Virus genome (UHGV): UHGV-1364441 | Direction: 5' to 3' (one strand) | Origin: a virus | DNA: 64,000 bases | Part shown: positions 1 through 46,379 of the stretch, in pieces | Layout: every line of letters begins with the position of its first letter | How positions within the stretch are numbered: the stretch's first letter is position 1 | The notes under the pieces: model-generated | Seen by the model: only the letters and a program-made list of their open reading frames with translations | The model's database searches: none | Told to the model about the DNA's origin: nothing | Position numbers and translations under genes: made by a program

Positions 1-1493
1 GTACTCAACAGGGGGATCTTTTCACCGCTGGTACCGAGTTCTCTTAAACCAAGGTATTGGATAACAGCAAGAACGCTTGTTTTGGCCAGAATATCGCGAC
101 CGACTGACGTTAAGTCAGTCTGAGAAACAGTGTCTGTACCGGTAAAGTACGGCAATTTATTTGCGCCTGTCGCAAGACCAGCAAGCGCGGTTAAAGTTGC
201 ATCAAGTGGCTGTTTCCCTGCCAGCGCATTTGTCATTGTTGTCGCAAAGTTCGGGTCATTGCCCAGTGCTGCTGCAAGCTCATTCAGGGTATCAAGAGCT
301 TCTGGTGATGAACCAACCAATGCGGATATGGCAGCTCTTACATAAGCGGTCGTAGCAATCTGCGTGTTATTCGTACCCTGTGCAGCGGTAGGCGCAGTAG
401 GTATTCCCGTTAATGCAGGACTTGCCAAAGGCGCTTTGAGAGCCAGGGAATTGTTGATAGTTGTGCTGAAATTCGGGTCGTTATTGATCGCAGCCGCTAT
501 TTCTTTCAGCGTATCCAGTGTGCCAGGTGCGCCGTTGATAAGTGCCGTTATAGCTGCCTTAACAAAGGCTGTATTTGCAATCTGCGTGCTATTTGTGCCT
601 TGTGAGGCCGTAGGTGCTGTCGGCGTACCTGTGAACGCCGGGCTTGCCAAAGGCGCTTTGAGAGCCAGGGAATTGTTGATAGTTGTGCTGAAATTCGGGT
701 CGTTATTGATCGCAGCCGCTATTTCTTTCAGCGTATCCAGTGTGCCAGGTGCGCCGTTGATAAGTGCCGTTATAGCTGCCTTAACAAAGGCCGCATTTGC
801 GATCTGTGTGTTGTTTGTACCGGGTTCAGGTGTCGGCGAAGTCGGCGTACCTGATAGATGTGGACTATCGAGCGGAGCTTTTGTATCAACCAAATCATGG
901 AGAGTTTTGACAGCCAGAGGTGTAGCCGCTTTTCTTTCTTCTGTACTGCTTATTTCATTAGAGAATTCGACACCAACAGCACGGTTAACCCGGTATTTAA
1001 GCACAATCATTTCTTTCGTCACAGCCGTTGCGCCGTTAGGCACGATAACTCGACATAATTCAATTTGATTCTGCCCAATAGTATTGTCCGTACGCGCGTA
1101 AATTCTTGCAGCACTGACAGAAGATGCGCTCTCTACCTGTGTCGTTTTTACACCATGTTCAAAATTGGCTTCTAGCACAATAATGTTGGTAGCCCCAGCC
1201 TTTACCGAGACAGTCACATCTTCTATTTGCTGAACGGATATCTGAACATTATTTACATCTACTGAAGCAGCCCCTTTACCTTCTGAGTTTTCAGAAGTTA
1301 TACGGACGCTCAACCCTGTGCCGGGAACTGGTTCAAATCCACAGTAAAAGCCCGGCAAAACAATATTTTTAAGTTTTCTGTTAAGAGCCGAACTACTATA
1401 GAGTTCGAAATATTGAACATCAGCAAGCAACGGCTGTGAGACACCAGAGGATAGTGTCATTATGTTGTTCGTTTTATCAGCACCCATAATCAT
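1..1493 (-). CDS. tail fibre protein, N-terminal ~497 aa (partial; continues past window start)
   Basis: Minus-strand frame open from ATG at 1493 (ATGA overlap with stop of upstream gene) to the window edge; absent from ORF track because truncated. Hand translation gives MIMGADKTNN... then 74-aa tandem units (NTQIANxAFVKAAITALINGAPGTLDTLKEIAAAINNDPNFSTT) and LDTLNELAAALGNDPNFATTMTNALAGKQP, which I recognise as the conserved block of enterobacterial side tail fibre (Stf / P1 S-like) proteins. Confidence 0.8.
   Translation of the reverse strand, partial: MIMGADKTNNIMTLSSGVSQPLLADVQYFELYSSSALNRKLKNIVLPGFYCGFEPVPGTGLSVRITSENSEGKGAASVDVNNVQISVQQIEDVTVSVKAGATNIIVLEANFEHGVKTTQVESASSVSAARIYARTDNTIGQNQIELCRVIVPNGATAVTKEMIVLKYRVNRAVGVEFSNEISSTEERKAATPLAVKTLHDLVDTKAPLDSPHLSGTPTSPTPEPGTNNTQIANAAFVKAAITALINGAPGTLDTLKEIAAAINNDPNFSTTINNSLALKAPLASPAFTGTPTAPTASQGTNSTQIANTAFVKAAITALINGAPGTLDTLKEIAAAINNDPNFSTTINNSLALKAPLASPALTGIPTAPTAAQGTNNTQIATTAYVRAAISALVGSSPEALDTLNELAAALGNDPNFATTMTNALAGKQPLDATLTALAGLATGANKLPYFTGTDTVSQTDLTSVGRDILAKTSVLAVIQYLGLRELGTSGEKIPLLS
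139..857. repeat. tandem ~222-bp direct repeats (three copies plus a partial), two nearly identical, inside the tail fibre gene
   Basis: Copies starting near 361 and 583 share ~150 bp of identical sequence (ggcttgccaaaggcgctttgagagccagggaattgttgatag...); a diverged copy lies at 139-360. Confidence 0.85.
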
Positions 1494-1936
1494 CCCTCAA
1501 CTTGCTCGATTGTCATGAGAATACTGTAACGTTTACCTTTATAGAGGGTGTCTTGCTGGGTGCAAAGCACAGCAAAAGCCTGTTCCTCAGCATCAACAAG
1601 CACAAGCGTGTTAAAGTCGTAAGGCGTGTTATCCGGCATTCTTTCTTGAGGGAAGGCTGCATTGATAGTGATAATCCCATCCACACTGGACAATATCAGA
1701 TCGGACACAGCAAACTGTTGAGCGTTACTCAATTTAAAATCGAGTGGAATGTCCGCTATATTCCAGCCTCCTGCACCATTAGCAGTTACCAGACTAGATT
1801 TGCACCAATACGCCTTAGAGATAACAAAACGCGCACCTTTGCCGATCGCCGACTCAGCGCGGCGTGAATAATAGTAGGAAAGCAATTGCGCCTTATACAG
1901 GCGGTTACCATCTCTTGCCTTTAAATTTTCAGCCAT
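1490..1936 (-). CDS. hypothetical protein in tail fibre/baseplate module
   Basis: 148-aa ORF translationally coupled to tail fibre start; position corresponds to a tail-fibre-adjacent gene (P1 R-like position); no motif recognised. Confidence 0.5.
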   Translation of the reverse strand: MAENLKARDGNRLYKAQLLSYYYSRRAESAIGKGARFVISKAYWCKSSLVTANGAGGWNIADIPLDFKLSNAQQFAVSDLILSSVDGIITINAAFPQERMPDNTPYDFNTLVLVDAEEQAFAVLCTQQDTLYKGKRYSILMTIEQVEG

Positions 1937-9569: not shown

Positions 9570-9839
9570 AAGCGATTATTGAGGGTGATTTTTACACCTT
9601 AAGTGACGCTACTCACATATCCACAGAGTATTTTTATAAACCTTTTTCCATTTTTAATCCTTTTTAGATCCTTTTTAGGCGTCGCTGGAGCCAGTAGTGG
9701 CGCGGGCTGTAGAGGAGGCTGGTGTAAGATTTGCCCTCAATTAAATACGATCGGTGTAAGATTTGCCCTCAAAAGGTGTAAGATTTGCCCTCAAAAGGTG
9801 TAGTAATTGCCCTCAAAGTGATGTAAAAATTGCCCTCAC
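9570..9839. repeat. iteron array upstream of rep gene (one inverted copy at 9570-9589, five direct ~20-bp copies at 9721-9839)
   Basis: ggtgtaagatttgccctcaa x3, ggtgtagtaattgccctcaa, gatgtaaaaattgccctcac; shares the ATTTGCCCTCA core I recall from F plasmid ori2 iterons. Confidence 0.8.
9611..9700. promoter_or_regulatory. origin-proximal AT-rich region with DnaA-box-like sequence (ATATCCACAG)
   Basis: catatccacagagtatttttataaacctttttccatttttaatcc; lies between an inverted iteron copy and the direct iteron array. Confidence 0.4.
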
Positions 9840-9862
9840 CATTTGAAGGATCACACAGGGTT

Positions 9863-10618
9863 ATGAACAGAGCGGAATTAACAGCAAAAGCCGTCAGCCT
9901 GATTGAGTCAGCGACACCTATTAGTCGTAGTTTGGCACAAGCCAATGAGATCACGGAGGCTGCTTATCACCTGACTCGCGACCAAAAGCGACTGTTGTTT
10001 ATTGTGGTGGGAAGACTTCGCTATGCTTCTAAGGATGGCGTTCTTGGTTCAGGTGCCTGTGAGTTGACGGTCAACGAATATGCAGAGATGTATAATTTGC
10101 CCTCTGCTGAAGCCAGCAAGGATATTCGTAAGGCCATTTCAGGGCTTAGCGAGAAGAAAGTTACGATATATAACCCTGATGAATCGACCGAATCAGAAGA
10201 CAGTTATGAGTCTTATCCTTGGATGATTAAGGATGCCTATTCACCACGGCGCGGGACTTACATTATTCATCTTAATCCATATCTCATGCCGTTTTTTACT
10301 CTGCTTGATAAGAGATTCACAAGGCTGAATTTTACCGAAGTATCTCGCCTTACAAATCCTTATTCTATGCGGCTTTATGAGTCCTTATGCCAGTACAGGA
10401 AGGATGATGGAAGCGGCTTTGCCATACTTGGCGTCGAATGGATGCGGGAGCGTTATGGGTTACCAAAAAGCTATCAGCGGTATGCCGAATTTAAGAGAAG
10501 TTTTTTAACGAAGGCTGTAGCAGAGATTGAAAAAAATACAAAAATGAAAATAGTCTTCTCAGAGGTGACGGAAGGCGGCAAAGTTACCAGGATAAAATTT
10601 ACCTATCAGCAGTCTTAA
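9863..10618 (+). CDS. repE: RepE/RepA-family (Rep_3) iteron-binding replication initiator
   Basis: Protein aligns along most of its length with F plasmid RepE as I recall it (TEAAY.L.RDQKR, AEASKDIR, YESxPW.IK, NPY.MRLYESLCQYRK.DGSG, LP.SYQR); start taken at MNRAEL (ORF track starts 9830). Confidence 0.9.
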   Translation: MNRAELTAKAVSLIESATPISRSLAQANEITEAAYHLTRDQKRLLFIVVGRLRYASKDGVLGSGACELTVNEYAEMYNLPSAEASKDIRKAISGLSEKKVTIYNPDESTESEDSYESYPWMIKDAYSPRRGTYIIHLNPYLMPFFTLLDKRFTRLNFTEVSRLTNPYSMRLYESLCQYRKDDGSGFAILGVEWMRERYGLPKSYQRYAEFKRSFLTKAVAEIEKNTKMKIVFSEVTEGGKVTRIKFTYQQS

Positions 10619-14246: not shown

Positions 14247-15905
14247 TCAGCGCATCAGAATTGGCTTACCGACGATTCGGCGAGCTGTACCGGTCGGACA
14301 AACAGACCAGGACACCTCCCACAGATCGATGTCCTTTTGGACAACCTGAACAACATATGGATCTTCACCCTGGGACTTGTCACGTGGAGTAACCAGCGCA
14401 CCGGCTGCAACGTAACGGTCAAGCAATTCAGTCATTGCTTTCATTAGCGTTTCTTTGGTAATGCCATCCGGTTCGTGCTTAATCGCCTGAGCTACTTCAT
14501 AGAAATCTCTGGCGATGGCGTTCATCAAGGAAGACACATGCTGGAATCGCAGATAGTTGTTTTTGCTGTAAGTTGTTAAAGAGTCGTCAATGTAAACGGA
14601 CCCGTCAGCAGCAACTGAAACTGGATTAATGCGCGCAAGAACGAACGCTTCACGATCAACTGCACCGATATTTGGAATTCGGGCAATGTTCTGTCGATCA
14701 ATAATCGCGCGTGATATACCTGCCGGTGCGTAATGCCAACCACCAACATCCGGTACCAGCGCCACTCCTTTTGCCTTCGCTACGAATGCGTCGCAGCTAA
14801 TGCCATAGACGACATTCATTCCAGTGAAAGTATCTCGGCAGGAGAGCGGGAAGTAGTAACGGCTTGGTTGATGTGAGCCGCCAAAACTATGGCTTTTCGC
14901 TTCTGAAATAGCGTTTTCAGGTGTCTGGTTGCCCTTCAGGTCATAGAACATGTCTACGCGAACATCTTCAGCCAGCTTTTTGATTGCGGCTAAGGCGGAT
15001 GCGTCATAACAACCCAATGACAGCAATGCGGTGTAATTAACCTCTGAAGCTTCGAGAACCTTTAATGCTTCCAGATAGTCTGCAGCGTTAATTTCGGACA
15101 GATTTCCATCAGTACCACCTTCAAAAGCTACATCCTCAAAAATGAGTTGAGCAGCGGATGCTTCTGCATTATCTGCCAGTACGGCACCAATTCGAGTGGA
15201 CTGGCTTTCAAGCAGTGTCGGAATCCATGCTGGCTGGCCCATGTCGTTAGTGCCTTCTGGATTGAAAGACACCTGGTGGCTTTCCAGCACCTCAATGGAC
15301 CCATCGGTTTGTTTTTCTTTCAGCGTCAGCGTAAAGAGTTCGCTTTCTTCATCATCGCGAGTTAGTGATAACGTGCGATTTTGAGATGCATCACCATCTT
15401 TGATGAAGAATAATGCCTTCTCTTCACCTTTAATCTGGGGCGTCTCTTTGGGTGTGAAGGTCACTGATTGAGTCGTTGCAGTTGAAGCAACACCAACGCT
15501 TAATGTGTCACCTGGGTTTACTGTGGTTTCAGTAGGTTCAACGGAAAGTTCTTTGCTCGCCTTTGCCGCTTTTGCTTTGCCCACAACGGAAACAGAAATA
15601 CCCGGCACCTTCATGTCTTTAGCGCAAACTCGAACGACATATCCGGAGCCGCCTTTTACTGCGCGCTCCACGTGGCGATATGGTTCAAATGCCGCGCCCT
15701 GGCGAGGGTGAATCGGTGAACCTAATACGCTTTGATAAGTCGTATCGTCAACTTTCAGTACCTTACCCGGTGCGCCACGACGCGATATTACAAGCCCAGC
15801 AAAGACGGATGCGCCACCGCTGGTATTGGTGAGGGTAGCGTCAGCATTTACTGACATTACAGCAACGCCAGCTGCCTGCCCTACCGAAAAACTAATCTTA
15901 TTCAT
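14247..15905 (-). CDS. putative tail sheath protein
   Basis: 552-aa ORF adjacent to putative head gene, by analogy with P1 gene order 22 (sheath) - 23 (head); not confirmed by motif. Confidence 0.45.
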   Translation of the reverse strand: MNKISFSVGQAAGVAVMSVNADATLTNTSGGASVFAGLVISRRGAPGKVLKVDDTTYQSVLGSPIHPRQGAAFEPYRHVERAVKGGSGYVVRVCAKDMKVPGISVSVVGKAKAAKASKELSVEPTETTVNPGDTLSVGVASTATTQSVTFTPKETPQIKGEEKALFFIKDGDASQNRTLSLTRDDEESELFTLTLKEKQTDGSIEVLESHQVSFNPEGTNDMGQPAWIPTLLESQSTRIGAVLADNAEASAAQLIFEDVAFEGGTDGNLSEINAADYLEALKVLEASEVNYTALLSLGCYDASALAAIKKLAEDVRVDMFYDLKGNQTPENAISEAKSHSFGGSHQPSRYYFPLSCRDTFTGMNVVYGISCDAFVAKAKGVALVPDVGGWHYAPAGISRAIIDRQNIARIPNIGAVDREAFVLARINPVSVAADGSVYIDDSLTTYSKNNYLRFQHVSSLMNAIARDFYEVAQAIKHEPDGITKETLMKAMTELLDRYVAAGALVTPRDKSQGEDPYVVQVVQKDIDLWEVSWSVCPTGTARRIVGKPILMR

Positions 15906-16397: not shown

Positions 16398-18095
16398 TCA
16401 CTTTTTTTCGTTAACCTTGCCTGTCAGCATGTCGATAGCACCTTCTTTGGCACGAGTCAGACGCAGGCGGGCGAAATAATTCTCACCGTTGCGCGGGTGG
16501 ACTTCGTTGATAGCACTACCCCAGAGAGTGGTGCGGTTAACGAGAGATGGATTGGTTTCGTGCACATACGGGATTGCTGGGACCGCATCACCAGCGATCA
16601 GCCCGGCTTTACCGATGCCTTCACCGCGACCATAGAAATAAATGTCATCCAGACCTAAGTCATATCCCTGAGCCTTGAATTGCTCACACACAGGCTGCGG
16701 CACTTCGTAAATACGAATCGTGCCAAACAGGGTGCCGATGTACTGCACATACGGTGACTGAACGTAGCCCGGCGCGATTTGGAAGTGCTGTGGAGGCAAA
16801 GAACGCAGGAAGTTAGCTGCGTCACCACCTGCGAAGCCACCGCGAATACCTGTGGTCAGGGTGCGGTTTGCCATTTCCTGAGACAGGGCGTTTACTGCGT
16901 GGCGCAGGAGGCCGACCCAGGACTCATAGTTTTGAGCTTCAGGCAGAGCCACATCAAATTCACGACCATAAACGGTATGGAATACCAGGGTGCGCAGACG
17001 CATGATGTCGGTTTCATGGGAGATCCAGTTCCGCATTGCGGAGAACTGAAGTGCCGCCAATTCAAGGCCGTGTTCACGGCTTAAATCGGAAGCGGACATT
17101 ACGGTGTGTTCGGAAGCAATTACGTACTGAGACGGTCGAACTTCATACTTACGCATAGCCTGGTTGATTACCGGAATCAGGCTTGGATTGCGCTCGATGT
17201 TAATTTCGACCTGAACCGCAATTTCAGTCCCTTCTGCTGGCGCTTGAGTGAAGGTAATGTCGATGACACCAGTGTCATAAGCGACTTTTGCGGTAGCTGA
17301 GAATGCATTGCCTTTGCAGTCTTTATCATTGAAATAAAGGTTGCCATCGCCGTCGTCAACCTTGGACGGTTTGCGGTTGATAAGCAGCTTGTTATAACCA
17401 GCACGCAGCGGGCAGGACTGCCCCTCAAAATTTTGGATGTCGAACTGGAAAGTTTTGGTGCTGCCGTCCCCTTTCGTGGAAAGGGTATACAGGCGCTTCA
17501 TTTGAGAATAAACACCAGCGGATTGCATATTCAGTTCGTCACCTTGCTCGAAGGTGCCGAATTTTGTGCCTGCTACGTTGACCAGTTCATAAATATTTGA
17601 CTCATCACGATCACAAGGAACAAAAGTACAGGCATCACTGGTAGCAGCACCCAGAGAGGCAGGCAGAATTAGTGCAGCATATTGAGCAACTTTCATTACG
17701 CCGTCAGAGCTACGCATTGATTGCGCGACAGACTCAAACATTGCCTTGCCAGTGCCTACGTGTGTATCGCTGGCACATTCAGTCATCAGGCGTTCAAGTG
17801 CCATGTGTGCGTTTGCCAGGATATCGCTTGCCGGGTAGTGACCATGCTGGCGCTTGTACTCATGCAGAGACATAGCCCACCCACCAGCGATCTGACGTGC
17901 AACCTCTGGATTTACGCCTTCAAACATAGCCTCCTTCTGGATAGCTTTATCCAGGTTCTCCATCATCGCTGCCTGATCAGCAATCATATTGCCCGCAGCA
18001 TCGGTGGTCGGATCGACGGTCATAGCCATGACGCTTGCCGCCCGATTCATAATCTCGCGCTCGCGATCACGAGCTGGCTGAATGTTTTTATTCAC
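16398..18095 (-). CDS. putative major head (capsid) protein
   Basis: 565-aa ORF heading structural operon; assignment by size/position analogy to P1 gp23. Confidence 0.4.
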   Translation of the reverse strand: MNKNIQPARDREREIMNRAASVMAMTVDPTTDAAGNMIADQAAMMENLDKAIQKEAMFEGVNPEVARQIAGGWAMSLHEYKRQHGHYPASDILANAHMALERLMTECASDTHVGTGKAMFESVAQSMRSSDGVMKVAQYAALILPASLGAATSDACTFVPCDRDESNIYELVNVAGTKFGTFEQGDELNMQSAGVYSQMKRLYTLSTKGDGSTKTFQFDIQNFEGQSCPLRAGYNKLLINRKPSKVDDGDGNLYFNDKDCKGNAFSATAKVAYDTGVIDITFTQAPAEGTEIAVQVEINIERNPSLIPVINQAMRKYEVRPSQYVIASEHTVMSASDLSREHGLELAALQFSAMRNWISHETDIMRLRTLVFHTVYGREFDVALPEAQNYESWVGLLRHAVNALSQEMANRTLTTGIRGGFAGGDAANFLRSLPPQHFQIAPGYVQSPYVQYIGTLFGTIRIYEVPQPVCEQFKAQGYDLGLDDIYFYGRGEGIGKAGLIAGDAVPAIPYVHETNPSLVNRTTLWGSAINEVHPRNGENYFARLRLTRAKEGAIDMLTGKVNEKK

Positions 18096-18220
18096 GGTTA
18101 AGCCCTAAATTCGGGCGCGGCGTGAAGGTTCTTTTGACGCGCTAACAATACCAACTTTGTGATTTAGTCAATAGCATTAGTAAAATAAAATCTGTTAACA
18201 CACGTGTTGTTATGTGGTTT

Positions 18221-18240
18221 AATTTTAATTTTCTAACACA
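18221..18240. promoter_or_regulatory. operator-like motif (TGTTAGAAAATT family) overlapping promoter of 18254 gene
   Basis: aattttaattttctaacaca; same motif recurs in at least ten intergenic sites. Confidence 0.5.
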
Positions 18241-18253
18241 AATCATTACGGTT

Positions 18254-18646
18254 ATGGCGTATCGGATCTTTGTTTCGTATAAAAATGGCGCGAAAAGCCA
18301 CTCCCTGAACACAACGAGCCGCTTTCTTGTTGAGGCGCAACTGGCATCAATTCTTGCCGAAAGTGAGATACTCTCGCTCGCTGAACGGATCGTTATCCAG
18401 TTTTCTGGTAGAGATATACTCAATGTCCCCGCCCTCACCCCGGCCTCCGAAGTTATGGAATCAATTAAATGGCCTGTATGCGGATGTCCTGCCAGGGTTG
18501 AAGAGCCGGTAACAGCAACGCTCTACATGCCGAAAGCAGTAAGAGATTGGCTTGCTGTGATTGGCAACGGGAAAGTCAGTGCTGGACTGCGAAAGTTAAT
18601 TGAAATGGCAGATATTCCAGAGTTAAAAAACGCATGGCGACAATGA
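18254..18646 (+). CDS. hypothetical protein, operator-preceded
   Basis: ORF from MAYRIFVSY (ORF track starts 18212); operator motif immediately upstream. Confidence 0.45.
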   Translation: MAYRIFVSYKNGAKSHSLNTTSRFLVEAQLASILAESEILSLAERIVIQFSGRDILNVPALTPASEVMESIKWPVCGCPARVEEPVTATLYMPKAVRDWLAVIGNGKVSAGLRKLIEMADIPELKNAWRQ

Positions 18647-18665
18647 GTAAACAGGGGGGGGCAAA

Positions 18666-19124
18666 ATGAGTCACGCGAATCCATCAAAAACACAATATCG
18701 CTTAATGCTGGCGATCGCGTCAGCTATACCAACCAGCCTGAATCCCCCTGCTGGCTATCCCGCTGTTGTTGATGATTGTTTTCAGTATTACGGTGAAGAC
18801 ATTCTGGGACAGTCGAAAGCACTAAAACAGTTGTGCAAAGCCGGGATTCTTCACTGCATAGGCGATCCGGATGATTTTGTTGTCATGCTGGCAGATCGTG
18901 ACTCTTTTCTGCTGTCCTGGAAAGCCGGGGCGCGCGAAGCGCGTTTGGGGAATGGCATTGGCTACATAGACTATAGCGATTGCCCGCTGGCATTTGCTGG
19001 TGGATATATGCATTGGCATGAGCGAAATAGAGGCCGTCAGCGTCAGTATCGCTTGAGTGACTTTAACGTCTGTCACGGTTTCGAAGAAGCTGACAGCCAG
19101 GATATCTGGCTTCAGGAGCCGTGA
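18666..19124 (+). CDS. hypothetical protein
   Basis: 152-aa ORF following 18254 gene. Confidence 0.45.
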   Translation: MSHANPSKTQYRLMLAIASAIPTSLNPPAGYPAVVDDCFQYYGEDILGQSKALKQLCKAGILHCIGDPDDFVVMLADRDSFLLSWKAGAREARLGNGIGYIDYSDCPLAFAGGYMHWHERNRGRQRQYRLSDFNVCHGFEEADSQDIWLQEP

Positions 19125-19444
19125 TTACCCTTCCCTTCCCAAATCTCCCTATTCCTTTGGTTATTCAGTGCGTTTCGTTGGTTGCATTCATCGATCGTGC
19201 TGAATAACTGTTCAGTGTATGTTGGATACTTGTTTAACAGCACTGGCGTGTCCTCTGGCACCAGACAAGGGGAATAATCAATCAGATTTGCCTGCGGCTT
19301 GCTGGTGGCTTCTACGGTAATTTTCACTGGCACGCTGGTTGATGGCTTTTGCCCGTTCCCGCTGCATCCTGATAACGTCATCAGGCACACGCACATCGTT
19401 AATCCCAGCACGGCGTAACGCAGTTTCAAGACGAGTGATTTCAT
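19112..19444 (-). CDS. Rz1-like o-spanin lipoprotein (overlapped with Rz-like gene)
   Basis: Signal peptide with lipobox LSGC, Pro-rich mature part, starts inside the Rz-like gene in another frame. Confidence 0.55.
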   Translation of the reverse strand: MKSLVLKLRYAVLGLTMCVCLMTLSGCSGNGQKPSTSVPVKITVEATSKPQANLIDYSPCLVPEDTPVLLNKYPTYTEQLFSTIDECNQRNALNNQRNREIWEGKGNHGS

Positions 19445-19751
19445 TCTGGCTTTCCTCTCGTTGTTTGATTAGGTTGGCATTCAGTTCTGCTGTTTTGCGC
19501 TGGTACTCCTTTTCCAGTGCTTTAATTCTTTCGTTTTCGGTCAGCATGGCTGAGCGAGCGTTCTCACTTAACTGTAATGCGGTAGAAAGCGTGTTGTTCG
19601 TGCTTTCCAGTTGTGATTTTGAGTCTTCAAGCGATCGGACATACCTGATGTGTTCGATAACTGCCGTCGTTGTTCGGTAAATTCCAGAAATGGCTAAAAG
19701 CGCAATTACAATCAAAATTATCTTTTTCAAAACCATCCTCTCCAGGTTCAT
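19278..19751 (-). CDS. Rz-like i-spanin (lysis)
   Basis: N-terminal membrane anchor (KKIILIVIALLAISGIY), long coiled-coil region, overlapping +1-frame lipoprotein gene at its 3' end. Confidence 0.6.
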   Translation of the reverse strand: MNLERMVLKKIILIVIALLAISGIYRTTTAVIEHIRYVRSLEDSKSQLESTNNTLSTALQLSENARSAMLTENERIKALEKEYQRKTAELNANLIKQREESQNEITRLETALRRAGINDVRVPDDVIRMQRERAKAINQRASENYRRSHQQAAGKSD

Positions 19752-19806
19752 TTTTGGTGTTAAACATGTACCAATTTACATCCTTTTGTGTGCCTAAGTG
19801 GTGTTT

Positions 19807-20610
19807 CTATGGTTCCTTTTTGGTGTTCTTTTGGAGCGCATCGATAACGCCTTGTGGCATGATTAAACTGATTGCCGGACTCATTACTGCATCATCCAGT
19901 AGAGAACCAGTTAACGTGATGGCGACAGCGTTCTCTAAACCTTTGGTTGCCTGAGTGGTTGACGTTTTAATGCGACCTGTAAGGGCTACGACACCCTCAC
20001 TTGCTGAGTTAATTTCGGAGAGTAAAACTTCGGCGGCTGTCACTGCTTCCCGTAAAGCATCAATTTCATCCTGAGTAATGTCCGGAGCCTGTGTTGCCCC
20101 TCCACCAGCCTGTCCACCATCACTATCACCACCGGCACTCCCGGCAGCTTCAATTTTTGCGTTTATGGCGTTCATGGCGGTATTCAGATCGTCAAGTTTC
20201 AGCGCCGCCAATGCGTCCGTTAATGATTGCGGTATGGAAACATTCCCCATCCCCTCTACCAGGGCGAACGCTGGCGCGGGGATCAGTTCATTACCTTTTG
20301 CGTGGCACTCCCAGCCAATCTTCATCTGTAACAACTCTGATGGCGTGGTGTATGGGGAAAGAGAGTCAGCCAGTGATGAAGAAGACTTGCTGGCCTCATT
20401 GAGCTGTTCGGAAAATCCAAGCAATTGAGTCGTCCAGGCCGACACTGAATCAGGATAGGTTTTATCAGGGTGAACCATTTCCTGTATTGCGCTCGCGAGT
20501 GACGAGGCTTTTGAAGAAGCCGCCCGGCTTATGGTTATTGATTCCGGTGTGGAGGCACCAGCACCAGACAGAATTTGGAAGGCTTTAACTTCACCTATTG
20601 AATCAAGCAT
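19807..20610 (-). CDS. hypothetical protein (Ser/Ala/Gly-rich)
   Basis: 267-aa ORF translationally coupled to upstream PAAR-like gene. Confidence 0.45.
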   Translation of the reverse strand: MLDSIGEVKAFQILSGAGASTPESITISRAASSKASSLASAIQEMVHPDKTYPDSVSAWTTQLLGFSEQLNEASKSSSSLADSLSPYTTPSELLQMKIGWECHAKGNELIPAPAFALVEGMGNVSIPQSLTDALAALKLDDLNTAMNAINAKIEAAGSAGGDSDGGQAGGGATQAPDITQDEIDALREAVTAAEVLLSEINSASEGVVALTGRIKTSTTQATKGLENAVAITLTGSLLDDAVMSPAISLIMPQGVIDALQKNTKKEP

Positions 20611-20894
20611 TATGCGACCTGAAAAATATCCTCGCCGTTAGCGATAACAGAACCACAAGAAAGCGGATCGCCTACGCAGACTACTCCCTTTCCACCTATT
20701 GAATACCATGCCCGTGTCGATACAGCCGATCCGGGATGTGCACTGTTGCCATCTGTATGGCTGGGAAACATGGCACCATCCACAACAACTGGCTTACCGT
20801 TGACGGTGAACCATGGAACGGTTTCAGCTACCAGTCGCGGCGGAAATCCTCCGTGACCGGAACAAAGTGTGTCGCTGGTGGCTATTGCGCTCAT
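20610..20894 (-). CDS. PAAR-like repeat protein (putative spike tip)
   Basis: 94 aa with CSGHGG, VNGKPV, SCGSVIANG pattern resembling PAAR/gp5.4 spike-tip proteins; low-to-moderate confidence. Confidence 0.45.
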   Translation of the reverse strand: MSAIATSDTLCSGHGGFPPRLVAETVPWFTVNGKPVVVDGAMFPSHTDGNSAHPGSAVSTRAWYSIGGKGVVCVGDPLSCGSVIANGEDIFQVA

Positions 20895-20987
20895 TCTTCA
20901 TCTCCTGGTTATTCGCCTATTGTCATCACTTTGTTATTTCGTCACTCAAAGAGAGAGTGAAATCACGGAACATTTACAATTCCCGTT

Positions 20988-21157
20988 TTGTTCTCAAATT
21001 GTTCTCAAATTGTTCTCACTTCTATCCAAGTGCCCAGCAGGCGATTAAAGATATTCTCAAAACAACCTCAATTATGACTCTTATTTATCTCTAATTATGT
21101 GGATTTTCGATGCCTTCTCTTTTAAAATCATGATTTGATTCTCAAATGTGTCTCAGA
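20988..21157. repeat. parC-like centromere: three tandem 11-bp repeats (ttgttctcaaa) plus dispersed TTCTCAAA copies upstream of parM
   Basis: ttgttctcaaattgttctcaaattgttctcact at 20988-21020; further copies at ~21053 and ~21136 overlapping the parM promoter. Confidence 0.65.
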
Positions 21158-21171
21158 AGTGGAGCAAGAAG

Positions 21172-22128
21172 ATGCGCATTTTTATCGACGATGGTTCAAC
21201 AAATATCAAAATGCTGTGGGAACACGACGGGGAAACTCGCACGCACATCAGCCCTAACAGCTTTAAGCGCGGATGGTCAGCAACATTTGGTGCTGGCAAG
21301 ACATTTAACTATGTCATTGACGACGAAAAGTATTCGTATGATTTGATCTCGCCAGATGTTCTGCCGACGAATAACGTTGAATGGCAATACAGCCCGCTTA
21401 ACGTCCTGGCTGTTCACCACGCCCTGCTGACAAGTGGCATTGAGCCGCAGGAAGTAGAAATTGTGGTTACGCTGCCACTGGCGGAGTTTTACGACGACGA
21501 CGCGCAATACAATCTCGATAACATCGAGCGCAAGAAAGCCAGCCTTATGCGCCCCGTCACGCTGAATAAAGGCAATGTATTCACGATTAAGAAAGTCACG
21601 GTACGCCCGGAGTCTATTCCGGCAGGAATTGGCCTGTGCGACAATCTGACCCCTGCCCACTCTGTTCTTATCGTCGATTTGGGTGGAACTACCCTTGATG
21701 TTTCAATGGTCGCCGGGCAAATGACGGCAGTTTCCCGTGTTTTTGGCGATTCGAATCTTGGCGTCTCTCTGGTTACCAGGGAAGTAAGGCAAGCACTTGC
21801 CAGAGCCAATACCGAAACGTCAAATTACAATGTCGATCAGCTCATTATTAACCGCCACGATGAAGATTATCTGAACGACAATATCAATGACCCATCAGCT
21901 ATTGGTGATGTGAAAAAGGCCATTGCTGCAAGTATTGACCGTCTGCGTACCCGCGTTCTTGATGTGATTGGCGATTTTAAAGGATATACGCATGTCATGG
22001 TGATCGGTGGCGGCGCACCGCTGGTGGCTGATGCAATTCGCGAGCAAGTTAATATTCGCGATGACCGTTTCTTCGTGGCGGATGACCCGCAACTTGCTCT
22101 TGTTCATGGCCTGAAAGCAATCGGTTAA
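21172..22128 (+). CDS. parM: ParM/StbA actin-like plasmid segregation ATPase
   Basis: MRIFIDDGSTNIK..., HISPNSFK, ERKKA, PESIPAG, DLGGTTLD, YTHVMVIGGGA align with R1 ParM as I recall it; start at MRIF with GGAG RBS (ORF track starts 21148). Confidence 0.9.
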   Translation: MRIFIDDGSTNIKMLWEHDGETRTHISPNSFKRGWSATFGAGKTFNYVIDDEKYSYDLISPDVLPTNNVEWQYSPLNVLAVHHALLTSGIEPQEVEIVVTLPLAEFYDDDAQYNLDNIERKKASLMRPVTLNKGNVFTIKKVTVRPESIPAGIGLCDNLTPAHSVLIVDLGGTTLDVSMVAGQMTAVSRVFGDSNLGVSLVTREVRQALARANTETSNYNVDQLIINRHDEDYLNDNINDPSAIGDVKKAIAASIDRLRTRVLDVIGDFKGYTHVMVIGGGAPLVADAIREQVNIRDDRFFVADDPQLALVHGLKAIG

Positions 22129-22140
22129 CGAGGTATGTCC

Positions 22141-22479
22141 ATGTCTCAGGAACGTAAGAAAGTGATGATTTATCTTCGCCCAGGGGCTTATGCCAATGAA
22201 AAGGCGGCGAGCGAGAAGATAAAAAAACATAGCGATATGGCAAGAACTGCATTGTTGGCAGGGCTTGCGCTGGGAGAAGTCGATAGCAGGCTTCCTGGAT
22301 TACTGGCTTCCCTGCTGACCGAAGTCAATAACCCGGAGCAGATCCGAAAAATGCTGGCATCCTTCCTGGAATTACCTGCTGCTGTTGAGGAGCACCCTGC
22401 CGCCATTGAGCCAGCGAAGGAGCAAGTTGTTGCCAAAAGCGCGTCGGCGCGTAATCTTGCTGATTCTCTACCTGATTGA
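22141..22479 (+). CDS. parR: ParR-like centromere-binding protein
   Basis: Small gene immediately after parM; N-terminal region with ribbon-helix-helix-like pattern and ALLAGLAL segment resembling R1 ParR. Confidence 0.6.
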   Translation: MSQERKKVMIYLRPGAYANEKAASEKIKKHSDMARTALLAGLALGEVDSRLPGLLASLLTEVNNPEQIRKMLASFLELPAAVEEHPAAIEPAKEQVVAKSASARNLADSLPD

Positions 22480-22499
22480 TGGTCAAAACTCTATTTTAA

Positions 22500-22522
22500 G
22501 GCTGCAAATTGCAGCCTTTTTT
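22500..22522 (+). terminator. rho-independent terminator after parR
   Basis: ggctgca-aat-tgcagcc hairpin followed by tttttt. Confidence 0.7.
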
Positions 22523-22525
22523 GTT

Positions 22526-22740: not shown

Positions 22741-22751
22741 AAAGCCGAGGT

Positions 22752-23399
22752 ATGGACATGATTATCCTGGTAGCAAGTCAAAAGGGAGGCTGTGGCAAGT
22801 CAACCACCAGCGTCAATATTTGTGCCGAGCTGGCCCGAAAAAACAAAGATGTCGTCTTGATTGATGCTGATAAGCAGGGAACGGCAGCTCGATGGGCGTC
22901 AGACCGTAATTCGTCCGAAGTGACACCAGTTATTCATTGCGTCCAGAAGTTTGGAAATATTCGAGAAACTCTGCTCGATCTTAACAATCGATATGAATAC
23001 GTGGTTGTTGATACCGCAGGTCGTGATAGTAAAGAGATGCGCACAGGTATAACGGCGGCGGATATTCTATTGGTTCCATTCAGGCCGTCTCAGCCAGATT
23101 TGGACACGCTGGCACACTTTGTTGAGGTGTTTGAAGAGGCTTTGGATCTGATGCCTAATCCCAATATTAAGGCGTGCGCAGTCTTAACGATGGCCCCGTC
23201 AAATCCGGTTGTGAATGAAGCAAATGAGGCCAAAGAGTATCTGGCAGAATATCCGCAACTGAAATTGCTGAAAACCATTATTCGCGATCGCAAGGTTTAC
23301 CGCGACTGCATGGCTGAAGGAAAGGGTGTTGTTGAGATGGATAACGGTAAGGCGAAAGGTGAAATTCAGATGTTAGTTAAGGAGTTGCTAAGTGATTAA
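22752..23399 (+). CDS. parA: small ParA-family (type Ib) partition ATPase
   Basis: Deviant Walker A KGGCGKST, ~215 aa, followed by a small overlapping gene. Confidence 0.85.
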   Translation: MDMIILVASQKGGCGKSTTSVNICAELARKNKDVVLIDADKQGTAARWASDRNSSEVTPVIHCVQKFGNIRETLLDLNNRYEYVVVDTAGRDSKEMRTGITAADILLVPFRPSQPDLDTLAHFVEVFEEALDLMPNPNIKACAVLTMAPSNPVVNEANEAKEYLAEYPQLKLLKTIIRDRKVYRDCMAEGKGVVEMDNGKAKGEIQMLVKELLSD

Positions 23400-25606: not shown

Positions 25607-25632
25607 TAGGTATTTCGCCACATAAAAAAGTA

Positions 25633-26560: not shown

Positions 26561-27305
26561 AGAGCACCCCCTTATTCGCTTCGAAAACTGCCTTTGCGAA
26601 TCCATGTGGAGTAGCACTTCGAAAATTAGCCCTGTCAGGCCCTGGTGGCGCGGCATGGATTCTGTTATCTGGCTTGCCTAATGATTCGTCCATTAGGGCA
26701 TCAGGCATGACAAAGCCCTGGCCGCTCCAGAGGCATGTTTTTTTGGTGTAGTTATCTTCCTGACAATATGCAGTGAAGAAGTAAGGGTGAAAGATGTGAT
26801 CTGGCTTACGCCAGAATGTCGATATTTTGCTGACCGGATTTTCAATCATGTACGGACAACCGATCATCTTTGCAATGTCATAACACTGCCAGACAACCTG
26901 CATTGCTTTGAACTGGAAAACCGGATCTTTATTAGCCTTGTCCGAAAACCAGCGCGCGCCGGAAACAGCCAGGTCAGTACACGGTGGGAACCCGGCCAGA
27001 AACACGATGCGCTGCAAATTCTTACGGAGAAAAGCGTATACTTCATCGCTATCGATGATCGCACTAATACGCGTCAGAACGGCACCTGATTGCATCCGCT
27101 CGTCACTGGTCGATAAGTGCTGTGGATCGACGATAGCGGCATCGACACCGTATTCCAGCCAGGGGGCAACCATTGCCCCCGTAAAATCACAAAGACTCAC
27201 AACAAGCGGTCGGTTATTATCGTTCTGCTTCACCGCCAATGGCCTCCACCAGCGCGTTAAACAGTGCAGATAATTCGCCCGTAAAGAGCACGAAATCAGC
27301 ATCAA
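26553..27305 (-). CDS. short C5 cytosine methyltransferase-like protein (start uncertain)
   Basis: Motif I-like DFTGAM, PC motif GFPPC, ENV-like ENPV; only ~215-250 aa so lacks an obvious target-recognition domain; ATG start would overlap rdgC by ~88 nt, alternative GTG near 27200. Confidence 0.5.
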
Positions 27306-28122
27306 ATCGTTGTGCTACATCCTCCCGGTCGATATCGTCGTTCTGGTCATAGAGATCATCACAGAATGTCAGGGCTTTGATACTCATATCATCGTTGACT
27401 CTGAACGACGCACGGTCCATCCAGTTAATTGCAACGGTCGTAGCTACTTTCCCCGCCTCAATGTGAGACATAATCTCGTCGGACTGTAGATCAACTTTGT
27501 TGCAGCGAACGGCACCACCATTATCGAGCAGACCCTTTAATGTGGCGTCTTCACCTGCTGTAAATCCGGCAGGGAAGCCGCTTTTAAACCACTCGGTCAT
27601 TGTAATCTCCAGCGGTTCGCGTGGTGTGAATGGAATGACAGGCAGGCTGCCGAGCGACTTTCGCAATAAAGCCAGCTGGTCCTCTGCCTTTTTGGCGCTG
27701 CTTGCCTCAACGAATACCAGATGGTTGCTGCGGTCGATCAGGATTTTGGCGAGTGATTTTCTCGTGAACGCGCGAGGCAAAAGTGAATGCAGGACTTCAT
27801 CTTTAAGACTGTCTCTTTCCGTTTTCTTCAGCTTGCGGGCTTGCTCTTCTTCGAGTTTCAGGACTTTTTTCTGCAACTCTTCCTTGAGCACCTGCGAGGG
27901 GAGAATTTTTTCTTCTCGCTTATGCTGTATTAGCAGAAAACCCTGGTATTCATGGGTGAGGTTGTCACCAAGAACAGGTGTCCAACCGACTTTAGCTGTG
28001 TCCTGAGAACCGCAAGGAGTAAACACGAATTTGCTAAGAGCATCGGATACTTCTGCGGCACTCCAGTTAACTTCACGTGAAAGACGATAGATGAAGATGT
28101 TTTTGAAAGCGACTGATCTCAT
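27217..28122 (-). CDS. rdgC: recombination-associated protein RdgC
   Basis: Aligns along full length with E. coli RdgC as recalled ([82 protein letters not shown]). Confidence 0.9.
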
Positions 28123-28135
28123 GTTTCACCAATTA

Positions 28136-28166: not shown

Positions 28167-28181
28167 AATTGGATGTATTTT

Positions 28182-28835
28182 CTATCCCTTCTTGAAATCA
28201 AAGTTGCTTGCGATAGCCTGGAAGGTGCCTCCAGCCTTGAAATCAATATTTTCGTCGGCTGTCACAGTAATGTTTTTGCCATTAACGCTGATGTTATCGG
28301 CTGATTTGACGTTAACACTCCCTCCCGCATTCACTACTACATCAGCCGGACCAATGATGTATATCTGCCCTGATTCATTCATTCCAATCCTTGAGCCTGC
28401 TGCCGTATTCGCTATTTCATATCCACCGCCAGCCGTTCGCACTTCGAGCACATTGTTGCGGTGAATCACGAAATCTTTTGTCGCCGAAAATTGCGGGCGG
28501 GGAGGCGCTCCGTCTACTTCTGGTGGCGTCCAGCCGCTACCATTGCCTGACGCCTCCGGCGCGACGTTTGGTACTCCGCCAGGCGCATCCTGAGCTGCGC
28601 CAACTATCATTGGGCGTCTGGTATCAATTCGACCATTAACATCCAGATAAGGAAACTCTACCCATACCAGGTCGCCTTTTACTGTAGGTACAAACGCGTT
28701 ACCTATGGGTAACAGGTATTCTGCCCAGGGTAGATCGTCATCAGGAACGCCATTCCAGTCTGGTAAAACACGGACCTGAGCACGCATAAGCCCTGCCGGG
28801 TGCACAGTTCCAACAATTTGCGCTCTACGCTTCAT
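28182..28835 (-). CDS. baseplate spike/hub protein (gpV-like)
   Basis: 217 aa; N-terminal OB-fold-like pattern (GTVHP.G.MRAQVRV...WAEY...GDLVWVEF) then Gly/Asn-rich repetitive C-terminus, like P2 gpV-type spikes. Confidence 0.5.
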   Translation of the reverse strand: MKRRAQIVGTVHPAGLMRAQVRVLPDWNGVPDDDLPWAEYLLPIGNAFVPTVKGDLVWVEFPYLDVNGRIDTRRPMIVGAAQDAPGGVPNVAPEASGNGSGWTPPEVDGAPPRPQFSATKDFVIHRNNVLEVRTAGGGYEIANTAAGSRIGMNESGQIYIIGPADVVVNAGGSVNVKSADNISVNGKNITVTADENIDFKAGGTFQAIASNFDFKKG

Positions 28836-29812
28836 TTGTTCGGCACTCCTAATATCATTCGTGTTGTGTAGCCTACGCGGTCTTCAAAGTGCGCAACATT
28901 TTTTACTATCAGCTTGCGGGGCATTGATTCATCAATGCGGTTTTCCTGGTCATAGCGGTATACGATAATCTCTATTACCATTCCCGGTTTTATATCCGGA
29001 TTGCCTGCGACTTCTATATCCATTTTGGGGACGAGAGACAGCTGCATATTGCGAAGAGTTTCCATATCAGAGTCGGATATATAACGCACTGGGAGTGAGC
29101 TATCGCCATATTCGACGTAGCCATCGGTCATGGAATACCCAACAAAACGATATTGATTCTTTGCTGTTGTCGCATGTTCCTGTTGGAGTAGGCGCATTTT
29201 GGACAAAGTGTATTCTGCTTTAGGGTTATTCCCCTCGTAGGTAAATGATGGCGTTTGCTTCATCAGATCAGCCAGGGTGTAAAAGTTAAATTCCCCCCGG
29301 CATACCCAACATAATGCACCTTTGTCTCGCGCTATCTGCGAGAGCATTTTTGACGGTTTGTCGCCTGCGTTCAGGTGATATGTAACCGCACGCTTTAAGA
29401 CACTGCTGGAAATTTTAAGATTGCCGCTATACGCCTTGAATATGGTGTCCGGCGTTTTGTTCGTGTGTAGATTGGTGCGAGGGGAGGGGATCTTAAACCG
29501 ATGCACGTCTTCACTGACCGCAATAACGGTAACTACATCCCCAGCCAGCATTGCTGACGTAACAAAAAAAGTTGTTTTAAAAGTGCCTGCATTACCGTTT
29601 GGATCGCCCATTTCAGCCACCAGCGATGCACCGTATTTAGCTTTCCAGTCATCAATTATGGTGCCTGTCATGTCATGAATTTCCAGCTTCAATAACGGCG
29701 CTTTAAGGCTGCTCTTTTCCACGTACACTGCGGTAAAAATCCAGTCTCGTGGCACTTTGTTATCGTTAATTGTGACTGACTGGAGGAAGTATTGTTGTAA
29801 CTCCTGGGACAT
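28832..29812 (-). CDS. hypothetical structural protein
   Basis: 326-aa ORF coupled to the spike gene. Confidence 0.45.
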   Translation of the reverse strand: MSQELQQYFLQSVTINDNKVPRDWIFTAVYVEKSSLKAPLLKLEIHDMTGTIIDDWKAKYGASLVAEMGDPNGNAGTFKTTFFVTSAMLAGDVVTVIAVSEDVHRFKIPSPRTNLHTNKTPDTIFKAYSGNLKISSSVLKRAVTYHLNAGDKPSKMLSQIARDKGALCWVCRGEFNFYTLADLMKQTPSFTYEGNNPKAEYTLSKMRLLQQEHATTAKNQYRFVGYSMTDGYVEYGDSSLPVRYISDSDMETLRNMQLSLVPKMDIEVAGNPDIKPGMVIEIIVYRYDQENRIDESMPRKLIVKNVAHFEDRVGYTTRMILGVPNK

Positions 29813-34459: not shown

Positions 34460-35113
34460 TCAAAGTATCACTGTATCTTCATCAACTTCTTTCCCAGCCA
34501 GTGAATTTGGCTGGGGACTGCCTGCTTTAACCTTTTCATGCCCAATAATGGACAGGAACGAAGCGAGGATGCCTGTTTTGTGCTCTTTCTCGACTGTACC
34601 TGTCATCTGTTCCACGTAATCCGCACTGGCAACGTTGTGGTATACGGTCGCGTAGCAACACAGGATCATAAGAATATGTTCCGGCCTGATGTCCTGCCAG
34701 TTCACCCGGTAGACTTCTTCTCCGTTACCGTTGTATTCGGTGTCAACGATGGAGTCGGGGATTTCGAAAGCACCTTTGTTATTTTGCGGCAGGGATAATA
34801 GCTTCTGGAGTTTTAGCTCTCTGTATCTTTCCATCCCGACGATGATCGCAGCTCTGCCGTCGGCATGACGTGTCTTGAGTGTTACCTGGCTTGCTCCGGT
34901 GCCAGCGGAGATCGTTGGCGTAATTTCGTCTACCAGCACCTTAAATTTGCTTTTCCGCAGGGCTGCTATAGCTGGAGGAATTTTTTGCTTTTGTTCCAAT
35001 GCTGACGCGGGAAGGGGTTTTACTTCGTTAATCACGAGAGCGCCGTCTTTCAGTATTGCAGTGAGCATTTGCGGTTTGCTGGTGGTCAGGCTGAATATTG
35101 CGATCTTTTCCAT
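34460..35113 (-). CDS. hypothetical protein
   Basis: Start at MEKIAIF with GGAGGAAGG RBS; ORF-track start at 35155 lies inside a terminator hairpin. Confidence 0.5.
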   Translation of the reverse strand: MEKIAIFSLTTSKPQMLTAILKDGALVINEVKPLPASALEQKQKIPPAIAALRKSKFKVLVDEITPTISAGTGASQVTLKTRHADGRAAIIVGMERYRELKLQKLLSLPQNNKGAFEIPDSIVDTEYNGNGEEVYRVNWQDIRPEHILMILCCYATVYHNVASADYVEQMTGTVEKEHKTGILASFLSIIGHEKVKAGSPQPNSLAGKEVDEDTVIL

Positions 35114-35140
35114 TGTCCTTCCTCCACGGATGACGGATAC

Positions 35141-35164
35141 AAAAAAAGGCCGCACATGGCGGCC
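35141..35164 (-). terminator. rho-independent terminator on minus strand immediately upstream of 34460..35113
   Basis: ggccgc-acatg-gcggcc followed on the minus strand by seven U. Confidence 0.55.
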
Positions 35165-45653: not shown

Positions 45654-45934
45654 TGGCTAACCTGCAACTTGCCGTCAAAGGTGAATACTTCGATGACATG
45701 ATTCGCGGGGAGAAAACGGAAGAGTATCGCCTGTGTAATGGCTACTGGAATAAGCGAATCATGTTCCGGGAATATGACCGCCTGATTATCACAAAGGGAT
45801 ATCCGAAGCGCGACGATTCCAGTCGCAGAATAGACGTCCCGTATAACGGATATGAAATCAAGACAATCACACATCCGCACTTCGGTGATAAACCGGTAAA
45901 GGTGTACGCGATAAAGGTGAATATCAATGGCTAA
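45653..45934 (+). CDS. hypothetical small protein
   Basis: MANLQLAVKGEYFDDMIRGEKTEEYR...; RBS GGTGAGG. Confidence 0.4.
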   Translation: MANLQLAVKGEYFDDMIRGEKTEEYRLCNGYWNKRIMFREYDRLIITKGYPKRDDSSRRIDVPYNGYEIKTITHPHFGDKPVKVYAIKVNING

Positions 45935-46379
45935 ATTTCAAAGAGCTATTATTTTTCTGGCTATGTTATCAGCCAGTCATTTATCCCACGCGTCAGTTAT
46001 TGCCGCTGGAGCGGCGGCAACAGCGGCGGCAACAGCGGCGGCAACAGCAGCGGCAACAGCAGCGACCACGGCGGCAGTAAATGCTTCTATCGCCAGCGAG
46101 CAAGCGCGGCGTGCTGCAACCAATGCTTCCGCAAACACCACCACGGTATCAGTCACACAATCAAAACCGAATATAGGCTTTGTTACTTGCGGAAAGAGGA
46201 ATAGCGAAATGGTTGGTTCTCTTGGTTGTGTAATGTGGCAAGAGGACGATAGACCTGAAATCCCGTGGAACTCATGGCCTGGTTACATTCTTGGTAAGAA
46301 GATACCCACCAGCTATGAAGTAAATGCTATTTCATTCGACCAATATAACGGTGTTGCAACGGTGTATTTTCTGTATTAA
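45927..46379 (+). CDS. secreted protein with Ala/Thr repeat tract
   Basis: Signal peptide then AAATAAATAAATAAATAATTAA encoded by tandem 9-bp gcggcggca/acagcggcg repeats. Confidence 0.5.
   Translation: MAKFQRAIIFLAMLSASHLSHASVIAAGAAATAAATAAATAAATAATTAAVNASIASEQARRAATNASANTTTVSVTQSKPNIGFVTCGKRNSEMVGSLGCVMWQEDDRPEIPWNSWPGYILGKKIPTSYEVNAISFDQYNGVATVYFLY

Follow-up and report, generated by a model that had tools for sequence, protein, structure and literature searches.

The virus genome UHGV-1364441 raises the question of what a small open reading frame (ORF) does when it resembles the tip of a phage tail spike and lies far from the spike gene. We analysed a stretch of 64,000 nucleotides (nt) of this genome, called here the window, in which an ORF of 94 amino acids (aa) occupies positions 20610..20894 of the minus strand. 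The original prediction read this ORF as a PAAR-like spike-tip gene and suggested that its distance from the spike gene, together with a coupled 267-aa gene downstream, could indicate an exchangeable cassette of tip and effector. The spike-tip assignment was borne out. The cassette was not. Very probably, its product is the spike tip of a D6-like phage-plasmid, a monomeric, metal-held PAAR cone that caps the trimer of the spike protein gp5 and whose gene is coupled to upfB and shares one operon with the spanin genes Rz/Rz1. Homology, conserved metal ligands, synteny with gene overlap, and purifying selection lead to this reading.

Judging by its sequence, the window comes from a D6-like (P1-related) contractile-tailed phage-plasmid of E. 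coli. D6 is a myovirus related to P1 that exists as a plasmid prophage. Over 19000-23500, the identity is 92.9% to Escherichia phage D6 and 98–99% to non-mobilizable E. coli plasmids of about 90 kb. At least 122 plasmid records match this region, mostly from Escherichia, Salmonella and Shigella, and also from Enterobacter. Using the D6 annotation, we assigned P1 gene names to the genes of the window. The loci compared were those of D6 (L001), P1 (L003), Cronobacter phage JK004 and the contigs L005 (from E. coli), L007, L009 (from a food metagenome) and L012 (92 kb, from GCA_000264825.1).

The spike-tip gene upfC

In D6, the counterpart of the 94-aa ORF is orf57, annotated as 'similar to P1 upfC'. 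In near-identical plasmid records, the NCBI pipeline names the product 'PAAR domain-containing protein'. The P1 structure PDB 9vyi_A ('UpfC') matched residues 1-93 at 8e-36, and PHROG 281 ('PAAR motif') matched at 2.6e-29. The PAAR profile of NCBIfam, T6SS_PAAR_dom, matched residues 8-88 at E=1e-8. T4 gp5.4, the 'tip of the central spike', matched residues 2-87 at 1e-5, and the Vibrio PAAR protein 4jiv (VCA0105) matched at 0.011. By homology, we assign the ORF as the D6-lineage ortholog of P1 UpfC, predicted to be a small metal-binding cone capping the tail spike. In an alignment of four members (the window, D6, P1 and JK004), the residues H14, H46, H53 and C80 are invariant, and they align with His/Cys positions of T4 gp5.4. 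We predict that these three His and one Cys are the metal ligands and make up a tetrahedral site at the apex of the cone. T4 gp5.4 has an iron site of this composition, and the H14A substitution abolishes its binding to the spike (PMC12407873). The cone fold of three intertwined beta-hairpins is inferred for the window protein from its 57% identity to the solved UpfC. When compared to D6, the ratio of nonsynonymous to synonymous substitution rates (dN/dS) of upfC is 0.04 at a dS of 0.35, a sign of strong purifying selection on this frame. Three ORFs of the plus strand (20736..20960, 20813..21094 and 20869..21048) were judged to be shadows of this conserved frame. No RNA family was found by Rfam over 17000-30000.

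The predicted docking partner of the tip is the gp5 ortholog. PDB 9vzk ('Gp5') matched it at 5.4e-54, and PHROG 430 matched as well. The original prediction called this spike gpV-like and placed it about 8 kb from the tip gene. The distance holds (7.3 kb between the facing ends of the genes, 7.9 kb between their starts), but the type of spike has to be corrected. Reading of the sequence revealed no HxH apex motif anywhere in the window gp5; it is therefore closer to T4 gp5 or VgrG than to P2 gpV. The window gp5 also has no lysozyme domain, so that it is best likened to a T4 gp5 or VgrG minus this domain. Where a spike lacks the HxH motif at its C terminus, the tip is a separate protein (PMC12407873). 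By this published criterion, the window gp5 is a spike that needs a separate tip.

For assembly and location in the virion, stoichiometry, timing of expression and phenotype, we rely on P1 and T4. Using HHpred, P1 UpfC was recognized as a T4 gp5.4-like tip, and P1 gp5 was described as a needle without a lysozyme domain (Gonzales et al. 2022). In the cryo-electron microscopy (cryo-EM) structure of P1 (2026), an UpfC monomer sits on trimeric gp5, an arrangement called 'strikingly similar' to that of gp5 and gp5.4 in T4; UpfB is assigned to a 'novel three-trimeric tripod' that has its anchor on the tip, and gp6 is assigned as the hub (PMC12810830). In the phage-plasmid of the window, one UpfC-like monomer would fold round a metal ion held by three His and one Cys. 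The cone would cap the gp5-like trimer where its C-terminal beta-helix ends bluntly, sharpening and stabilising its point. UpfB-like trimers probably hang on the cone, as three trimers do in P1. Upon sheath contraction, the tip assembly would be the first to meet and breach the outer membrane, and peptidoglycan cleavage would be left to the transglycosylase of the tape-measure protein Sit, as proposed for P1. The genes upfC, upfB and Rz/Rz1 would form one leftward operon, whose promoter is probably a late one of the capsid class. As in P1 and T4, the tip would be dispensable for plaques on standard hosts, and a gain in fitness or penetration is expected on some envelopes. An in-frame deletion of P1 upfC caused no plaquing defect (Gonzales et al. 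2022), and both upfB and upfC were nonessential in a genome-wide CRISPR interference (CRISPRi) screen in P1. T4 gp5.4 is dispensable for assembly; it is needed for fitness and for infecting deep-rough lipopolysaccharide (LPS) mutants (PMC12407873).

Several observations weigh against this reading. The Pfam profile PAAR_motif aligned residues 53-84 of UpfC with 26.7 bits, 0.3 short of the gathering score of 27. Thus, the profile search proposed as a check was clear with PHROG and NCBIfam and a near miss with Pfam; relatives were recorded as 'PAAR_motif (faint)'. The single-sequence AlphaFold2 model of the window UpfC had a predicted local distance difference test score (pLDDT) of 37.9 and was unusable. 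For the window, UpfC and UpfB are predicted virion proteins. In the virion proteome of P1, UpfC was undetected by liquid chromatography with tandem mass spectrometry, and UpfB appears nowhere in the main text of that paper. The UpfB tripod is an AlphaFold3 trimer fitted into medium-resolution density (PMC12810830). Finally, the candidate late promoter described below was assigned by pattern only, and P1 has a C1 operator, not the box of the window, 5' of upfC.

The partner gene upfB and the organization of the locus

The coupling of the downstream gene and its Ser/Ala/Gly-rich composition were confirmed. The stop codon of upfC and the start codon of upfB overlap as TAATG, and UpfB contains 14.6% Ala, 12.0% Ser and 7.9% Gly (34.5% together). 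A Gly/Ser linker at residues ~157-175 varies in length among homologs. We found a match to phrog_1559 at 3e-102. A tblastn search of the phage collection with UpfB missed P1; pairwise BLASTP then recovered the homology (27% identity along 262 colinear aa, E=8e-22). Among 1.84 billion proteins, the family has 73 representatives at E<=1e-3, nearly all of 240-265 aa. Across the whole range of identity, from 97% to 26%, the homologs align colinearly from end to end; this points to gradual divergence and not to replacement of a module. Conserved islands at residues 85-120 and 217-252 are separated by variable segments. No Pfam, NCBIfam or PDB domain matched UpfB. The AlphaFold2 model of the monomer (pLDDT 80, predicted template modelling (TM) score 0.74) is entirely helical. 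A Foldseek search of the PDB with this model gave nothing at E<=0.001; all that it returned were unspecific helical bundles (TM 0.15-0.3). In BFVD, the model had weak matches to DUF7217 proteins only (E~3e-3, TM 0.43-0.53), from Pectobacterium phage Wc4, Serratia phage 3M and Salmonella phage 38. A Pfam search with the window UpfB and ten distant family members detected neither DUF7217 nor any other Pfam family, and we leave this modelled relation as a weak lead.

It has to be considered whether UpfB is a virion protein at all. It could instead be a chaperone of tip and spike assembly, or a late periplasmic, envelope-associated or lysis-associated protein, and the PAAR tip would then act alone. 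The silence of the proteome paper and the medium resolution of the tripod density agree with this possibility, as does the place of upfB in the same operon as Rz/Rz1. In P1, moreover, neither in-frame deletion nor CRISPRi knock-down caused a plaque defect. However, tripod density is present on the tip in the P1 map, and its authors report a good fit of the UpfB trimer model (PMC12810830). Strict linkage of upfC and upfB with gene overlap across divergent relatives suggests a stoichiometric partnership, and the helical model of UpfB has no evident signal peptide or membrane segment. We consider a non-virion role of UpfB decidedly unlikely.

The position of the tip gene was described correctly: Rz/Rz1-like genes lie downstream and parM/parR upstream. 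Oriented on upfC, the gene order is genes 7-24-6-5, hrdC, one or more methylase genes, optional accessory or partition genes, upfC, upfB, Rz/Rz1 and, further 3', capsid gene 23. It turned out that P1, JK004, D6, L005 and L009 all have this full order. The L007 contig ends upstream of the partition genes and shows upfC-upfB-Rz and capsid gene 23. In seven loci (the window, D6, P1, JK004, L005, L007 and L009), upfB adjoins or overlaps upfC and is followed by Rz; in the D6-like loci, the stop codon of upfC and the start codon of upfB share one base. In L012 (5172-6780), a more distant relative, a PAAR gene and an UpfB-like gene lie beside ParA/ParG with an extra 122-aa gene between them, whose stop codon overlaps the start of the UpfB-like gene. 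The gap between gene 5 and upfC is ~8.8 kb in P1, 7.3 kb in the window, 6.0 kb in L009 and 5.1 kb in L005. The extra distance in the window comes from the ParA module and the glnS gene, both of which are also present in D6. The conserved order indicates that the separation of tip and spike is the ancestral layout of P1-like genomes with their scattered operons, and not the sign of an exchangeable cassette. P1 has at least 45 transcription units (PMC10695390). As a general point, tip genes need not adjoin spike genes (PMC12407873).

We compared the divergence of the virion proteins. UpfC of the window is 97, 89, 78, 62, 56 and 52% identical to its counterparts in D6, L005, L007, L009, P1 and JK004, respectively. 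The corresponding values for the capsid protein (gene 23) are 97, 87, 83, 63, 44 and 45%. Those for gp5 are 92% in D6, 78% in L005, 62% in L009, 46% in P1 and 48% in JK004, with no value for L007. For UpfB, the values in the same order as for UpfC are 91, 59, 48, 39, 27 and 26%. In these sequence comparisons, UpfC ranks with the best conserved virion proteins of the family, and UpfB is the least conserved and the fastest-evolving at every level of divergence. Purifying selection still acts on UpfB, whose dN/dS is 0.12-0.18 (0.18 beside the 0.04 of UpfC). In contractile injection systems, tip proteins belong to the best conserved components, and T4 gp5.4 and P1 UpfC are the only pair of tail proteins of these phages matched by BLAST (PMC12407873).

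Along the comparison with D6, blocks of ~99-100% identity alternate with blocks of 83-93% identity (75-93% over 8500-31250). One diverged block of ~1.3 kb (~20000-21250) covers upfB, upfC and the region upstream, and another (~27750-28700) extends over gp5 and the 5' end of hrdC; both are 83-91% identical between flanks of ~99%. Within 8500-31250, further diverged blocks cover the 3' part of sit, capsid gene 23, the parR/ParA region and gp6/gp24. The dS between neighbouring genes ranges from 0.009 to 0.70. The alternation of blocks indicates that D6-like elements have frequently exchanged alleles through homologous recombination. The tip locus is not singled out by this, for the capsid and ParA genes are covered too. 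Of the claim that the locus is exchangeable, what stands is the fast evolution of UpfB and the recombined blocks of upfB-upfC and gp5; what does not stand is a special status of these blocks, since those of the capsid and ParA genes are similar. UpfB is the least conserved protein, its variable segments alternate with islands, and upfB-upfC and gp5 are both diverged. It is conceivable, though we think it unlikely, that the UpfB tripod and not the PAAR tip is a fast-evolving module in contact with the envelope, exchanged together with gp5 by homologous recombination among D6/P1-like phage-plasmids and tuning penetration or host range. If this were true, the upfC-upfB locus would be a second determinant of specificity beside the tail fibres.

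The cassette itself, in the manner of type VI secretion systems (T6SS), would require that the PAAR protein carries the 267-aa protein, as an effector with toxic or enzymatic activity, into a target cell and that the pair is swapped between phages. T6SS PAAR proteins do carry effectors, upfC and upfB are translationally coupled, the diverged block roughly coincides with the two genes, and UpfB evolves faster than any other virion protein of the family. Nevertheless, UpfB has no domain of a toxin or enzyme, its predicted all-helical fold has no enzyme-like match, and it is the ortholog of a structural tripod protein. There is no immunity gene near upfB; the spanins come next. The gradual, colinear divergence of UpfB speaks against replacement. 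UpfC is a bare 94-aa PAAR domain without an effector extension. It is highly conserved, its locus is fixed in position in the family, and its NCBIfam score is 35 bits against a T6SS equivalog cut-off of 124 bits. Apparently, the locus is very improbable as an effector cassette.

That the PAAR gene benefits the host as a 'moron', for example by supplying a PAAR cap to a host T6SS, is scarcely credible: PHROG 281 is filed in the category 'moron, auxiliary metabolic gene and host takeover' and upfC sits among plasmid-maintenance genes, but the closest structurally characterised homologs are the virion tip proteins of P1 and T4, the candidate promoter is of the same class as that of the capsid gene, the window gp5 without an apex needs a tip, and most E. 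coli hosts of D6-like plasmids have PAAR genes of their own. The 'moron' label of this PAAR family is most likely a mislabel.

Expression signals and neighbouring features

The coordinates of the features are given in Table 1. The motif GAAATAACAAAGTG found 5' of upfC recurs in the same orientation before capsid gene 23, before a gene for tail-fibre assembly (1490..1936) and before a mat-like gene (34460..35155). The pattern AAATMACAAASTK-N2-NANNNT occurs four times in the window when 0.07 occurrences are expected, a figure to be read with the fact that the pattern was refined on these same sites. The arrangement of box, two nucleotides and hexamer is kept 5' of upfC in D6, L005, L007 and L009, which makes five D6-like loci with the window. 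P1 late promoters have a conserved element near -22, which is the Lpa site, and a -10 hexamer without a -35 (PMC10695390). The box sites match this architecture and are candidate late promoters of the D6 type; upfC may thus be expressed late, together with virion genes. The promoter region of P1 gene 23 contains a related inverted repeat, AAAGTCA-N5-TGACTTT; the late box of P1 gene 23 is absent 5' of P1 upfC. At 82-98 nt 5' of P1 upfC, we found a C1 operator with one mismatch (L003 13903-13919). The upfC-upfB-Rz-Rz1 operon of P1 may be controlled by the repressor, unlike the D6-like arrangement. The P1 C1 operator ATTGCTCTAATAAATTT is absent from the window. A scan for recurrent palindromes with 9-bp arms as Lpa boxes found none, and a sigma-70 consensus scan found nothing 5' of upfC. 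The paper on P1vir transcriptomics does not mention upfB or upfC.

Table 1. Positions of the genes and signals discussed, numbered from the first letter of the window
Feature	Position	Strand	Basis or remark
upfC ortholog, 94-aa PAAR-repeat spike-tip protein (predicted)	20610..20894	-	ATG-to-TAA ORF; homology
AGGAG ribosome-binding site of upfC	20902..20906	-	7 nt 5' of the upfC ATG, read from sequence
Candidate late promoter of upfC	20919..20939	-	box AAATAACAAAGTG, 2 nt, -10-like hexamer GACAAT, no -35
Box AAATMACAAASTK-N2-NANNNT	1975-1995, 18145-18165, 20919-20939, 35250-35270	all -	pattern search
upfB ortholog, 267-aa Ala/Ser-rich protein	19807..20610	-	D6 orf56 'similar to P1 upfB'; homology
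Rz-like inner-membrane spanin, P1 ppfA counterpart	19278..19751	-	PHROG 214/89 'Rz-like spanin'
Rz1-like outer-membrane lipoprotein spanin	19112..19444	-	PHROG 456/30284; weak Pfam O_Spanin_T7; D6 orf54
Gene 5 ortholog, trimeric central spike (OB-fold and beta-helix), predicted docking partner of the tip	28182..28835	-	homology
Gene 6 ortholog, baseplate hub seating the spike	28832..29812	-	phrog_1390; D6 orf67 'similar to P1 gene 6'
hrdC	27217..28122	-	D6 annotation
Gene 23 (capsid)	16398..18095	-	D6 annotation
Gene 22 (sheath)	14247..15905	-	D6 annotation
parM/parR (StbA/StbB)	21148..22479	divergent from upfC	D6 and plasmid annotation
ParA-type ATPase	22752..23399		beyond parM/parR; D6 and plasmid annotation
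16-mer TTATGTTAGAAAATTA sites	18226, 28133, 28153, 35349, 36962, 37619, 41362, 53037, 54260, 54438, 58869, 62587

The Rz-like gene is the third gene of the leftward upfC operon, and its P1 counterpart is annotated as Rz. The Rz1-like gene overlaps the 3' end of Rz in another frame and encodes the lipobox LSGC; its true start may be an internal Met. Between upfC and parM (20980-21018 and 21139-21155), there are three to four copies of the 11-bp direct repeat TTCTCAAATTG. Relatives have repeats of the same type, different in sequence and copy number; in L005 there are about nine copies of GAGACAAACTA. These repeats adjoining the upfC promoter are probably the parC centromere and the ParR-binding iterons of the ParMR (StbAB) system.

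Other observations concern the rest of the window. The asymmetric 16-mer TTATGTTAGAAAATTA occurs 12 times with at most three mismatches (0.66 expected). Its exact-word copies lie between long ORFs, with an inverted pair at 28133/28153, and together they probably serve as operators for a heteroimmune C1-type repressor. At 23945-25606 (+), the phage-plasmid has a full-length gene for glutaminyl-tRNA synthetase (553 aa), as does D6 (orf62). An IS91-family insertion takes the place of this region in the plasmid NZ_CP122510 (99% identical), in which rdgC is truncated. The Rep3-family repA (9830..10618) is flanked at 9721-9830 and 10618-10690 by repeated units of ~19-22 bp, TTGAGGGCAAATCTTACAC and related ones, which are probably replication iterons. 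At 46010-46061, the 12-mer GCGGCGGCAACA is repeated four times in tandem within the ORF 45927..46379. A cluster of four tRNA genes (Met-CAT, Ser-TGA, Thr-TGT and Arg-TCT) lies at 60324-61518 (-).

Comparison with P1, T4 and the T6SS

The UpfC/UpfB module of P1-like phages is already characterised, and the separation of tip and spike is its normal, conserved layout. The present analysis contributes the contrast between the conserved tip and the variable UpfB, the recombination blocks and the candidate late-promoter box. Its value is in correct annotation, since PHROGs lists the UpfC family as 'moron/host takeover' and upfB is labelled 'hypothetical' in many plasmid records. UpfC and UpfB are most likely parts of the membrane-piercing apparatus of the tail in these phage-plasmids. 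The exceptionally conserved tip with its exceptionally variable tripod partner offers a lead, with a possible effect on host range or on LPS-truncated hosts.

P1 is the closest known system. Its UpfC (PDB 9vyi) and that of the window both have 94 aa, share 56-57% identity and have the same His/Cys ligands. As in the window, upfB and then Rz/Rz1 follow upfC in P1, and gene 5 is distant. P1 UpfB resembles the window UpfB in full-length colinear homology, in its position 3' of the tip gene and in helical N- and C-terminal parts with a Gly/Ser linker, although the two proteins are very diverged at 27% identity. The surroundings differ: upfC of P1 lies beside hrdC/uhr with repA-parAB downstream, whereas in the window ParMR (StbAB) and iterons lie directly 5'. 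The control region differs as well. P1 has a C1 operator 5' of upfC, and the window has no operator of the P1 type but a box in common with the promoter of the capsid gene.

T4 gp5.4 (PDB 4ku0, 5iv5) is similar: it is a PAAR-repeat cone of ~95 aa with a metal site of three His and one Cys, its monomer binds a trimeric beta-helical spike, and plaques form without it, all of which is predicted for the window UpfC as well. The identity of gp5.4 to the window UpfC is only ~28-30%. In T4, unlike the window, gene 5.4 is near gene 5, gp5 has a lysozyme domain, and there is no UpfB-like partner. The T6SS PAAR proteins (VCA0105/4jiv, c1882; PF05488) belong to the same superfamily as UpfC and have the same role of capping the spike, which in the T6SS is VgrG. 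In contrast to them, the window UpfC scores far under the equivalog cut-off and has neither an effector extension nor an adjoining effector/immunity pair or T6SS genes.

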